64,000 nucleotides of DNA from Squalus acanthias (Eukaryota). Below, piece by piece: positions 4,337-9,815 of the stretch. Positions within the stretch are counted from its first letter, which is position 1; each line of letters opens with the position of its first letter. The notes beneath the pieces are model-generated. The model worked only from the letters and a program-made list of their open reading frames with translations. It was not told the DNA's origin and did no database searches. A program made the position numbers and the translations under genes. Where the stretch lies: assembly GCA_030390025.1 (NCBI GenBank), contig CM059432.1, forward strand, positions 82,214,001-82,278,000. The letters run 5' to 3'.

Positions 4337-5465
4337 GTGAGTATAGAGCAACCTGTGACCTCATGTTAACTATCGAGCAGCCCTTTGGAAATGGTCCTTT
4401 GGTGCCATCTAGTGGTTTACAGCCATCACTGGTACCATGTTAGATTTAAGCGTTTATGAGAGTTGGATGAGGCAAAACAATAGAATCTTGGAAAGAGATG
4501 AAGATTAACAAGAGAACTTATTTTTCACATAGTATAAATCCTTATGTTGAATTTAACAAACTCAGGATATAGTTTTATTACCAGCACTGAATCGTTCTAA
4601 CACTGCTCCATACTGTGATCAAACTTGAATTGCAGATCCTGCTTTATCCCTGTATTTTCATTCAGATTTTCTTGTATATTTCCTTTTGAAAGCAAGTGGT
4701 GACACGGTAGCAAGTGAACAGACAATGACATTTCCTATTCTTTCCTTTATGTGTGTTTTAGTCATGTGAATACAGGTTTAAAAAATCTGAAATTGCAATA
4801 TTTATGGCTTACTATTTATACTGGTGATGCTTCTCTTTGCTGTTTTCTCTCCCCCGACTGTTCTTTTCTGATGTTTGTGTTACTTTCCATCTCCTGTTGT
4901 TTCTTTGACTCTCTTCTGCTGATTCTCTTAATTTACGTTTCTCTACTGTTTCTTTTTTAACTTATTTTTATATTAAACTCTCCTTCTTTCCCCATCCTTT
5001 TCGATCTTGTTTCATGTGAATAAGGAAGTAGATCACAAACCCCAGTGAAGCCACCTCAGCGCTGCCTCTGAGCACTGAGCGAATGGCTGAAGTGATCTTG
5101 TGGCACTGGCACTATTCCAAGATCAGGCTTTAAGGTCGGCCACCATCTGCATTGTGGTGACTCCCAGCTTTACTGCAACCTTCTATTTAACCCTTCCCTG
5201 TAGCGTTTGGTGTAGTGTCTAGATCGGTGGTTCTCAAACTGAGATTCATTGAGACTTTCCGGGGTTCCGCGAAAGAAACCCCAATCGGTGATGCGGAGCG
5301 GCCGGGCGCTGCTGAACGCGGCGGTGAATGGTTACCATGGCGGCAGCAGCAGCGGCTATGCGCTGCAGGAAGAAGAGAAGGCAGGAGGGAAAAAGACTGC
5401 TGCAGCTGTGGATTTTTGCCGGTCTCGGCTGGTGACTGTCCGGATTTCACCGTTTCACCGCTGCA

Positions 5466-5980
5466 ATGTTCGCTTGCGCTAAAGTGGTATTGGCCGCAGC
5501 AGCGGTTCGCAATGGATCTCGAGCTCTTTGTAGACCACTTTCTGTGTCAGTCATGCTCACACCAGAGGCTCCGTCTGGAAAATATCCTCCAGTTCCACTG
5601 AGCCTTGCACCATCTGCGAGTAAGTCCTCGCTGTTGCTGTTGTGAAGTACACAAATACAATGAGGGAAACACAGCACTTCTGAGAAGGACCCAGGGCAAG
5701 AATTCATTTACTCAAGAAGTGCTCAGAGTTCCAGACGAGTGCTACAAGGCAGGACATTGACACCGCTGGAAAGTTTATTGGTGCTGGAGCTGCCACAGCA
5801 AGGGTGGCTGGTTCCGGTGCTGGTATTGGAACAGTTTCTGGCAGCCTTATTATTGGCTATGCCAGAAATCCTTCTCAGAAGCAGCAGTTGTTCTCGTGCG
5901 CTATCCTTGGATTTGCCCTGTCTGAAGCTGTGGGACTCTTCTGTTTAATGATCGCTTTCCTGATTTTGTTTGTGATGTAG
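5466..5980 (+). pseudogene. ATP5MC3: Processed pseudogene of mitochondrial ATP synthase subunit c (ATP5MC3/ATP5G3-like)
   Basis: Intronless MFACAK...RALCRPLSVSV...[22 protein letters not shown]...YARNP...[20 protein letters not shown]; in-frame TGA at 5643-5645; frameshift at about 5728; substitutions at conserved sites; AATAAA at 6105-6110 and short A-tract at 6123-6129. Confidence 0.92.
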
Positions 5981-6392
5981 AATTTGCTGATGAACAGAAT
6001 AGCCTAATCAAGTACAAATGTGATTAATATTTCACTGGCTCCCACTAATATTCATGTTGGTGTCATGGAAATGTACATTTCCTAAGTCTGTTGTCAAATG
6101 TTCCAATAAATTCGATTACAAGAAAAAAATGACTGCGGGCCAGCAGCGGCCGCAGAGCCACCGCCAGCAACAGGAGCCGGAGGCAGAATAGCGCAGGACC
6201 AGCTGTTCAGAGAGGAACCGATCGTCTGTCAACAAAGATTCCGTCCTGGCTGCCAGTCGACTGCAGCAGCGCTGGGAGACGACCACAAATAACAGGCCCC
6301 GCAAGTCGGACATACATTACATTCGTTCTGTCTGTCCATGGTCAAGGGCTGGCCAAGGAGCAAATCTGACATAATAATCTGGGCAGCACTTG

Positions 6393-7085
6393 AATAAGAA
6401 CATAAGAACATAAGAATTAGGAGCAGGAGTAGGCCATACGGCCCTTCGAGCCTGCTCCACCATTCAATAAGATCATGGCTGATCATCGACCTCAACTCCA
6501 CTTTCCTGACCAATTCCCATATCTCTTGATTCCCCTAGAGTCCAAAATTCTATCTATCCCAGCCTTGAATATACTCAACGATTCAGCATCCACAGCCCTT
6601 TCAAGAAGAGAATTCCAAAGATTCACAACCCTCTGAGTGAAGAAATTCCTCCTCCTCTCAGTCCTAAATGGCCGATCCTTTATCCTGAGACTATGCCCCC
6701 TAGTTCTAGACTCTCCAGCCAGGGGAAACAACCTCTCAGCATCTACCCTGTCAATCCCCCTCAGAATCTTGTATGTTTCAACGAGATCACCTCTCATTCT
6801 TCTAAACTCCAGAGAGTATAGGCCCAATCTACTCAATCTCTCCTCATAGGACAACCCTCTCATCCGCGGAATCAAGTTAGTGAACCTTCGTTGCACCACC
6901 TTTAAGGCAAGTTTATCCTTCCTTGGAAAAGGAGACCAAAACTGTGCATAGTACGCCAGGTGTGGTCTCACCAAAGCCCTGTACAATTGTAGCAAGACTT
7001 CCTTACTCTTGTACTCCAACTCCTTACAATAAAGGCCAACATGCAATTTGCCTTCCTAATTGCTTGCTGTACCTGCATGCTAACA
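6393..7085 (-). mobile_element. CR1 LINE 3' fragment
   Basis: ORF 6492-7046 encodes the CR1 C-terminus (LYRALVRPHL..QFWSP..RRMRGDL..FFTQRVVNLWN); (ttcttatg)n tail. Confidence 0.92.
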
Positions 7086-9110
7086 CTGTCCCAGAAATTC
7101 CCTACATTATTGCCACGAGTTAGCCCTGCAATCCTGGTGAAAAATGGCGGCCGCCACCCTAACGCCCTTCTCTGGTGCGGGACTCGGCGGCCGCCAGTTT
7201 GGTGAGGGGCTTAGCTCTACCGATAGCAGCGCTGGAGATGCAAATATTGGGAGCGTGATGTCAGTCGGCAGGCTGAGTTGAACGCTGGGTCCTAAGCGCA
7301 CTCTGAAAAGCGAGCGTTCAGAGACTATTTCCTCGGGTAGAGGCAGCTGTTACAAGAGGGCATAACTATAAGGTGCATGGGGGGAGATATAGAAGGGATG
7401 TCCGAGGTAGATTCTTTACTCAGAGAGTGGTTGGGGTGTGGAATGGACTGCCTGCTGTGATAGTGGAGTCGGACACTTTAGGAACTTTCAAGCGGTTATT
7501 GGATAAGCACATGGAGCACACCAGAGTGATAGGGAGTGTGATAGCTTGATCTTGGTCTCGGACAATGCTCGGCACAACATCGAGGGCCGAAGGGCCTGTA
7601 CTGTGCTGTACTGTTCTATGTTCTATGTAGATGCTGTCAGCACTTCTTAAAGGGACACACACATCTTTCAGGTGAGTTTGCTTGTAAGCTTTTGGACTGG
7701 ATTTTTTAAATTTTTTATTGAAGTAGTGGTTGGTGCAATACATATTAAAAGTTTTTTAAGTATTCAGGGAGTGCTGCTGGATGCTTGCAAGGCCTCAGCT
7801 GGTAAAGGGAAGGCCTCTGAGAAGACAGAAAATGCTGGGAATATTCAGCAGGTCAGGCAGCATCCGTGGAGAGAGAAACAAAGTTCGTGTCTCAGGTCGA
7901 GATGCTGCCTGGCCTGCTGAGTATTTCCAACATTTTGTGCTTTTATTTCAGAATTACAGCATCCGCTCACAGAGGGAAGAGAAAGACGCAGAAAAGGAGG
8001 ACACAGAAGGAAGGATGCAACCCAGACAGCCCCTTTCTGGCCGGGATATCTGGGATGGAATCATCTGCCTGCGGTACCAGTGACCACAATCCCAATTCCC
8101 TTTCAACGTTTGTCCCACACCTTACCTTCCCTCTGTTACTGACCATCACAGCGTCCTCTTGGCCACAATGCTGAAATAAAAGTCACCACAAAGCAAATTT
8201 TCCAATCCAACTTTATACATCTATCCATCCAATGTGACATTAAGAAATCAACTCATCACCCTTATACATTCCCTTAGTGACTGTCTTGTGTGTGCCTTTG
8301 CCTATCCTACTGATGTCACACAGTGCTACCCCAGTGGCTGCAGCATGGCTGGTGGAAGGCCGCTGACTTTCAGTGGGGGACACTGCAAATGGCCTTGCTG
8401 GTCGACCTTGAGGAGCTGGTGGCTGGGAGTGTCAAATCGAGTGAAAGTGTTTCTTCTTCCTCTTCCTCCTCTCTCCTCTCTCCACTTCTTGGTCACCCAC
8501 TGGCTGGGCAGGCTGGATTTCTTGGGTGTGTGAAATGAGGAAGGCACAAGGGTGGAGTTGTGGTGAGGGGAGGGCGGGAAAGCAAGAGGTGCATGCGAGA
8601 AGGAGGATAACGTATGAGGAGACCAGCATCTTGTATTCTTTCACCCACTGCTGGCCAGGAGCTCAGCCATGCCCCTGCCAAGAATGGCCTGCACCATCTC
8701 CACCAAGGGGGTGAGGTGACGCTAGGAATGGGAGGTGTGCCTCATGTTTTGGTACAGATTGTTGGTAGGTGAGTGATTGGCGGGGAGGAGTTGTGCATTG
8801 AGAAGTGTGTGAGGCTAGTGGTGCAGTTGGTAGGAGACAGCTTTTGAAGATGCATTCACTGACCTTGACCACTGGTCTGAGGTCATGAAGCTTCTTTAGG
8901 CACTGGAGCCAGGTGGTGGAGCCAACACTACTGGCATGGACGGCCTCGGTGATCTGGTCCCACCTTTCTTTCTGAAGGCCCTCCTGGCCCCTGTGGGTAG
9001 AGGACCTCTCTTGCAGTGTTGACCCCCTGCACAAAGCTGGAGTGCTGCGTGCGAGACCCTGGGTGCCCCTTCCCTGGCTTGTGTTAGTGCTGAAGCACTT
9101 TTACCATTTT
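7086..9110. mobile_element. Truncated Harbinger-derived non-autonomous element with Myb/SANT-like remnant on the - strand; CR1 3' end nested at about 7336-7627
   Basis: 7630-9110 is collinear with 60510-62000; remnant reads WDQITEAVHASS..TWLQCLKKLHDL. Confidence 0.75.
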
Positions 9111-9114
9111 TTTT

Positions 9115-9355
9115 AGGTGTGGAAGATTAAAGTCCCCCACGATTATTGCATTACTTTTGTTACAAGCTCATATTATTTCCTGATTAATACTCTGTCCAAC
9201 GGTATAGCTACTGTTAGGGGGCCTATAAACTACTCCCACCAGTGTTCTTTGCCCCTTGTTATTTCTTATCTCCACCTATAATGATTCTACTTCCTGATCT
9301 TCTGAGCCAAGATCCTTTCTCACTACTGTCCTTATTGTCATCCTTTATTATCAGG
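9115..9355 (-). mobile_element. CR1 endonuclease-domain fragment
   Basis: Reverse strand encodes GVVYRPPN and IVGDFNLP, motifs of the APE-like endonuclease. Confidence 0.7.
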
Positions 9356-9815
9356 ATGAATACACTGAATAACCAATGCCTTTGTAATTTTAAACAATCA
9401 ATTCTTTACCATCACTATCATTTTATACATACATGCTTGAGGGATTCCCGTTTTGTAAATGTCTATATTGCAATTCATTGTCAGAAGATCCTGGTATAGT
9501 ATCAATACAAGGGGTCCTTCAAACAAAAAAGAACCACTGGTCTAGATCAGCTCCTTCTTTGCTTTTCTTGCTCCTCCTTCCCTTATACTCTTTTCCTTTA
9601 CTCTGTCCCACTCTCTAGTCTCTGATAATTATACCTGATGTAAGTTTATACCAAATATCTATCCACAACCATGACTGTTGCTTTATATCATTGTCTTGGT
9701 TCCTTCAACACGTGTCTGATCATCCCTGTTCTTCATGTTACATTGGGGCTACCCAACCTCTATCATGCTTTGAAATCAGTCCATTTCACAATGTAGAAAA
9801 GAACAGTTTTAGTTT

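Follow-up and report, generated by a model that had tools for sequence, protein, structure and literature searches.

An ATP5MC3-like retrocopy nested in a hAT transposon of the shark Squalus acanthias and its likely spread with the carrier

How does a copy of a spliced mRNA come to lie between the ends of a cut-and-paste DNA transposon, and does it multiply together with its carrier? This question is raised by a stretch of 64,000 nucleotides from the shark Squalus acanthias (assembly GCA_030390025.1, contig CM059432.1, positions 82,214,001 to 82,278,000 of the forward strand; hereafter the window, in whose numbering all positions are given), where a hAT-type element at 5217-9547 encloses an intronless ATP5MC3-like sequence. 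The first-pass annotation of this DNA had interpreted the arrangement as a Pack-TIR, i.e. a transposon with terminal inverted repeats (TIRs) that captured host sequence. Our comparison of positions 4800-6395 with the contigs of four shark sequencing runs (X1, X6, X7 and X8) out of 22 listed argues for a different history, which we consider probable: a spliced ATP5MC3-like mRNA copy, with a target-site duplication (TSD) of its own, resides within a Buster-type hAT element that is itself non-autonomous, and a hAT transposase supplied in trans likely multiplied the composite. Run X6 was taken as RNA by guess, and the terms parent-like and expressed-like refer to exon joining and depth.

The span 5217-9547 is a real non-autonomous hAT element of the Buster type. 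As had been noticed before, its termini are flanked on both sides by the identical 8-mer GTCTAGAT, and among 23 forward and 31 reverse terminus-like 10-mers this is the sole TSD-flanked pair in the window. The label Charlie-like formerly given to these termini is a tentative one. The TIRs comprise 10 bp, complementary at 9 of them, whereas the Busters compared have 14-16 bp; the right end is devoid of the remainder of the left terminus, no mirroring extends beyond the TIR, and the subterminal sequences of the two ends show but a weak alignment, which was not used as evidence. The TA at positions 4-5 of the TSD agrees with the Buster target consensus nnnTAnnn, which is given in the accessible text of PMC3517528 together with a range of 5-27 bp for hAT TIRs. 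Because TIRs and an exact 8-bp TSD are both present, the window copy was clearly put in place by hAT transposase. Other elements sharing the left terminus diverge behind 5264 (3, 1, 6 and 4 contigs in X1, X6, X7 and X8, respectively), and loose ends at 5227 (4, 7 and 4 contigs in X1, X7 and X8) carry flanks of low agreement (0.54-0.59), so that the family is dispersed; in all three loose-end consensus lines the octamer preceding the terminus again has TA at positions 4-5. No second copy of the element or of its cargo was found within the window, and 9356-9539 had no Pfam match in its three forward frames. The 8-mer GTCTAGAT also occurs at 19456 and 23850, 4.4 kb apart and without adjoining terminus-like sequence, which we take as chance.

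Within this element the ATP5MC3-like copy is bounded by a duplication of 11-12 bp, the left sequence AAAAAGACTGC returning with one change as AAAATGACTGC just past the A-rich tract. Taken alone, this match is of modest weight, as 31 out of 5000 segments drawn at random from the window score equally. Nonetheless, the retrocopy junction is fixed independently by contigs representing the empty site: 10 of the 15 listed joint rows (55 in total), distributed over all four runs, leave out the retrocopy by leading from 5338-5398 to 6126-6138, and the contigs that skip it number at least 9 in X1, 7 in X7 and one each in X8 and X6. One of the X7 contigs passes from 5400 to 6137 with a single letter between. 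Therefore, the retrocopy's own TSD is settled, and its coincidence with a poly(A) and an empty site in a multicopy family shows that the ATP5MC3-like copy came by retroposition into a resident element and not by Pack-type DNA capture. Since the poly(A) is accompanied by an A-led TSD, established knowledge and the criteria in the accessible text of PMC4224331 point to an enzyme of the LINE-1 type (long interspersed nuclear element 1). Thus, the earlier statement that no separate TSD surrounds the retrocopy does not hold, the argument from a lacking TSD to capture was rejected, and the Pack-TIR framing of the ATP5MC3 part is not supported. The two CpG-rich fragments described earlier form one sequence, both being joined in retrocopy-free members from all four runs.

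The identification of the cargo as a copy of an ATP synthase subunit c mRNA with AATAAA and a short A-tract was correct (PF00137, E 3e-12). Its coding sequence (CDS) is colinear, one 82-nt segment apart, with shark ATP synthase subunit C3-like proteins of 144 aa; the last 84 residues share 87-89% identity with eight out of eight shark ATP5MC3-like proteins, and the N-terminal stretch 58-85%, those of Pristiophorus and Heptranchias being the best. The introns of a multi-exon parent appear to be gone. The exon structure of this parent is presumed, in part from the alternative N-termini of proteins P0004 and P0006. As parent mRNA we took contig X6 record 11, which covers 5453-5581 and 5666-6037 at 5.6-7.0% from the window, retains both bases at 5724 and reaches 117 letters upstream of 5453, beyond the retrocopy start; the orthologous flank in the same run shows 3 differences from the window in 389 bases. 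The first-pass description of a complete cDNA does not hold: the copy contains an additional 82 nt, has lost 2 nt at 5724 and starts downstream of the 5' end of the parent-like contig. The additional segment and the 2-nt loss distribute the CDS over three frames. The 23 listed CDS differences from the parent-like contig comprise 15 window-private changes (a class assigned by eye from depth columns, 5974 among them), 11 of which are nonsynonymous, and 8 changes common to most copies, 6 of which are synonymous. Given the two frame breaks and the preponderance of nonsynonymous private changes, the copy is disabled and its coding capacity lost; it is a passenger without sign of function.

The 82-nt segment deserves separate consideration. 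It is jumped by an X6 joint (5581-5666) and spanned by five listed paralog-level contigs (records 14, 15, 16, 21 and 22), and its depth in X1 (199) is similar to that of its neighbours (231 and 274). Its position at a likely exon junction, the AG at its end and a length of 84 bases in several copies would fit an in-frame cassette exon of a minor ATP5MC3 isoform.

Did the composite multiply? The orthologous locus is recognizable in each run (X1 record 1 at 0.5% substitutions, X6 record 8 at 0.8%, X7 record 12 at 4.0% and X8 record 20 at 5.1%), with the left end of the element at the orthologous place in all four, so that none of them could show an empty hAT site. Record 20 spans flank and terminus and enters the retrocopy, and the composite insertion is therefore older than the species split of about 5%. 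Besides these, among the 29 listed of 1011 pieces, the left junction between element and retrocopy is bridged by five paralog-level contigs with 9.8-13.5% substitutions (X1 records 2 and 3, X7 records 13 and 14, X8 record 21), and the right junction by two contigs at 11.9-13.4% (X8 records 25 and 27). A left bridge was counted if at least 42 letters stood on either side, which excluded X1 record 6 with only 11 letters beyond the TSD; a further X1 contig joins 5314 to 5431. Allowing for two alleles per locus, X1 alone holds at least two composite loci besides the window copy, and its summed depth over the retrocopy, 8 to 20 times that of the flank (median 13), suggests about ten or more composite copies, although depth does not amount to a copy number, and parent exons as well as unrelated pseudogenes may contribute to it. 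A near-identical contig is missing in X1 over much of 5376-6395, which is no finding since the records were filtered. The shared insertion site, the 82-nt segment in five paralog-level contigs and the 2-nt loss at 5724 common to three records (X1 records 4 and 5, X7 record 18) indicate a single founder of the composite copies. Distances from the window to the paralogs (8.4-14.4%) are about twice that to the parent, as would be expected of a star-like burst soon after retroposition. Moreover, X1 record 3 continues leftwards for 826 letters beyond the piece that aligns, while the depth of the window flank stays flat at 15.2-16.3, the value of record 1 alone; the copy in record 3 has, therefore, a different flank. 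The first-pass view of a non-autonomous hAT holding RNA-derived cargo at several loci is thereby borne out. It had also named what would overturn it, a single-copy retrocopy with its own TSD inside an ordinary element: such a TSD inside family sequence exists, but the single copy was rejected, the same junctions being bridged in diverged contigs.

The history that we favour runs as follows. The resident was a hAT family of many copies whose interior was GC-rich, as its retrocopy-free members show; one member received the mRNA copy, with the poly(A) and 11-12-bp duplication observed, most likely by target-primed reverse transcription of the LINE-1 type; this single composite gave rise to several copies, detected at at least two loci besides the window copy; cut-and-paste transposition brought the window copy into a SULF-like gene, as evidenced by its TIRs and 8-bp TSD, and the others likely moved likewise; finally, the copies decayed and the window copy received the later insertions that it now contains.

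Several points weigh against this history. Among the listed contigs none joins a foreign flank, the TIR and the retrocopy, and the loose ends at the terminus may all stem from retrocopy-free members. The right end of the element lies outside the range compared (4800-6395), and two X8 contigs run past 6392 with A-rich letters unlike those from 9356 onward, which means that other family members may be longer than the window copy and that the 1.35 kb formerly estimated for the element before its later insertions is a tentative figure. The 2 nt at 5724 are kept in four X7 and five X8 contigs, so part of the depth over the retrocopy may come from parent exons or independent retrocopies. In addition, the frames scanned with Pfam yielded no transposase domain and no transposase is linked to the element; the run-contig figures rest on the 29 pieces listed out of 1011, on 15 joints out of 55 and on 40 substitution rows out of 769; a contig of one run may be the orthologue of a contig of another, so that counts are not additive across runs; and the window-private class depends on the by-eye assignment mentioned above.

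It is conceivable, albeit unlikely in our judgement, that the composite became multicopy without transposase, i.e. through gap repair or gene conversion among resident members of the family, retroposition of a read-through transcript of the element (retro-DNA) or segmental duplication of a different locus. No listed contig ties a retrocopy-bearing paralog to a TIR with its own 8-bp TSD, retro-DNAs are known from primates, and animal Pack-TIRs arise mainly by gap filling independent of transposition according to the accessible text of PMC8277862; on the other hand, the window copy has both termini and an exact TSD, its flank was not duplicated along with the paralogs, as judged from the flat depth, and an identical junction in several similarly diverged copies would fit a transposition burst better than repeated conversions. 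A true Pack-TIR, in which the hAT captured as DNA a genomic stretch already holding the retrocopy and its flanks, we regard as very improbable. Multicopy hAT Pack-TIRs with 5' untranslated region (UTR) cargo are described in the accessible text of PMC8277862, and the GC-rich interior does resemble host sequence: X6 record 10, a contig of 1309 nt whose depth is 48 where the flank contig has 2.6, is 94% like 5292-5344 and 6138-6169, skipping the retrocopy, and has nothing on the terminus or on 6170-6395. Nevertheless, the same interior is joined across the insertion site in many retrocopy-free members, which argues that it already belonged to the hAT family, as otherwise a precise loss of the retrocopy plus one TSD would be needed. 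One-off retroposition into a dead resident hAT, with the extra depth supplied by independent ATP5MC3 pseudogenes, is largely refuted and scarcely credible, for although the retrocopy has its own TSD inside family sequence, the 2 nt at 5724 are present in some contigs and housekeeping mRNAs yield many pseudogenes, seven contigs diverged by 10-14% bridge the same junctions beside ortholog-level contigs at 0.5-5% in the same runs, and independent pseudogenes would share neither the insertion site nor the 82-nt segment.

Returning to retroposition into a resident element with subsequent transposition, the landing sequence itself remains of interest. The ratio of observed to expected CpG is 0.39 in the window but about 1.0 in the stretch 5281-5401 and 0.69 in the stretch 6131-6392, and the frame of 5249-5400 runs across the empty site into that of 6120 with one stop before 6372. 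The odds are about even that this interior is an earlier captured host first exon; X6 record 10 could instead be an expressed or collapsed element variant. Two word-seeded protein searches and a full phmmer scan gave no identity for the interior, nor did a protein atlas search of the left piece alone, with a remote look-alike still possible, and a pattern scan of metagenome contigs had no match. Summed depth in X1 peaks at 1700-2300 over 6312-6395, above the remaining interior, a part that may belong to a larger family. It is tempting to speculate that the hAT captured a CpG-rich first coding exon, spread, took there a retrocopy of a rare ATP5MC3 isoform with an extra exon and spread again to at least ten loci before the species split; this would combine two cargoes acquired by two mechanisms and constitute the first cut-and-paste counterpart, in the literature searched, of the bat Helitron retrogene carriers, but as a whole we give it somewhat less than an even chance.

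Table. Coordinates of the element, its cargo and later insertions in the window
Feature	Position	Strand	Remarks
Left 8-bp TSD of hAT element	5217..5224		GTCTAGAT, nnnTAnnn
hAT left end, TIR 5225-5234 and subterminal sequence	5225..5274	+	Inner limit approximate
GC/CpG-rich internal segment, left part	5275..5400	+	Multicopy; depth 464-874 in X1 vs 15 in flank
Own TSD of retrocopy, left copy	5390..5400	+	AAAAAGACTGC; empty-site joints
ATP5MC3-like processed pseudogene	5401..6124	+	Leader 5401-5465, broken CDS 5466-5980, 3' UTR, AATAAA 6105-6110, A-rich tract 6120-6129
82-nt segment at codon 39/40 junction	5583..5664	+	Missing from parent-like contig and 8/8 shark proteins; in paralogous copies
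Own TSD of retrocopy, right copy	6125..6136	+	AAAATGACTGC at 6126-6136; empty-site joints
GC-rich internal segment, right part	6137..6392	+	Continuous with 5275-5400 in retrocopy-free members
Later insertions	6393..9355		Dispersed repeats over most of span
CR1-like pieces	6393-7085, 7341-7630, 9116-9355	-, +, -	Name putative
Repeat	7635-9110		80% like 60517-62006
AT-rich right end of hAT element, TIR 9530-9539	9356..9539	+	No Pfam match in three forward frames
Right 8-bp TSD of hAT element	9540..9547		Exact match to left TSD

The first-pass annotation had attributed about 6393-9355 to later CR1 and Harbinger insertions. Dispersed repeats indeed fill most of this span, with TGAATA at 6391 and 9357 as a candidate short duplication, but Pfam supports neither name, and both are putative labels; within the span Myb_DNA-bind_5 is matched just at E 0.1. 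A separate minus-strand frame at 40433-40906 contains Myb_DNA-bind_5 (E 4e-8), which we take to be typical of Harbinger-type elements. Between two of the CR1-like pieces, 7086-7340 is a GC- and CpG-rich stretch of 255 bp (observed/expected CpG 0.84) with a 15-bp inverted repeat and without a match elsewhere in the window. Other repeats include a 28-bp unit arrayed about 19 times in tandem at 9816-10347, 270 bp right of the element; two stretches of 430 bases (186-615 and 55117-55546), 100% identical in direct orientation and 55 kb apart, which reflect either a repeat copied very recently or a feature of the assembly; and open frames of 667 and 481 codons at 23118-25118 (minus) and 48937-50379 (plus), which on reading we presume to be of LINE-type reverse transcriptase character.

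Downstream of the element, SULF-like exons follow on the plus strand at about 12984-13118, 16932-17246, 20037-20276, 25843-26025 and 51716-51847; their motifs and the name SULF1 are putative. The element is likely intronic in this SULF-like gene, upstream exons having been checked by those motifs alone. A stop-free frame of 345 codons without a Pfam match (51693-52727, plus) overlaps the last SULF-like exon in another frame; it may represent an alternative last exon that is extended, or else an unrelated insertion.

The closest known system is found in vesper bats. As far as the accessible text of Thomas et al. 2014 (PMC4224331) tells, HelibatN424 arose when RPLP0 mRNA was retroposed into a Helitron already carrying the SRPK1 promoter, and reached six copies by amplification before a species split; it is one of four Helitron-amplified nested retrogenes in these bats, which the authors regard as the first for any DNA transposon. 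The shark composite resembles it in that a non-autonomous DNA transposon holds an mRNA copy that has poly(A) and a TSD of its own, that exemplars of the element without the retrogene exist, and that the composite was amplified; the Helibat landing site was previously captured host promoter sequence, and a comparable capture is possible in the shark element. Unlike the Helibat, the shark carrier is a hAT with TIRs and an 8-bp TSD instead of a rolling-circle Helitron, its cargo is ATP5MC3-like, has an extra segment and is disabled, and its landing sequence is only a candidate host capture. With Pack-TIRs, the element shares host-derived sequence between the two ends of one non-autonomous hAT, at several loci. 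In the accessible text of Tan et al. 2021 (PMC8277862), however, Pack-TIR cargo is genomic DNA acquired via gap filling or template switching, whereas the poly(A), own TSD and empty site of the ATP5MC3 part speak against uptake as DNA, even though the element behaves as a carrier of cargo; distinct TSDs are demonstrated for Pack-TIRs alone. Four multicopy cases (1.4%) were found in that survey, among them hAT-N8_XT of Xenopus tropicalis with the CAPSL 5' UTR; copies of multi-exon genes that lacked introns were discarded, and the word shark was not found in its main text. As in the Buster non-autonomous hATs of PMC3517528 and PMC12637253, to judge from their accessible text, there is an 8-bp TSD with TA at positions 4-5, short TIRs and no coding capacity; unlike in them, the right TIR is short and the interior GC-rich with a retrocopy, and no transposase was found by which a phylogeny could place the element. 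Joined exons, a poly(A) signal and tract, an A-led TSD, 5' shortening, frameshifts and neutral decay are features of LINE-made processed pseudogenes, but in the shark copies a single site within a DNA transposon received the retrocopy, and hence their multiplication took place at the DNA level rather than through repeated retroposition. A TIR-element or shark case of an amplified nested retrogene was not found in the literature searched, a body to which most subscription papers, repeat databases and supplements did not belong.

The weight of the finding is limited by the published Helitron precedent and by a cargo that is dead. Nonetheless, it describes a route by which one retroposition event leads to a family of pseudogenes riding on a cut-and-paste transposon. 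Counts of retrocopies are usually taken as independent LINE events and the Pack-TIR survey dropped intronless cargo, so that both screens would miss this route; the survey met few TIR elements that carry cargo in several copies, and little work has been done on sharks. The copies may keep a splice form missing from annotation, and their shared insertions are usable as phylogenetic markers.

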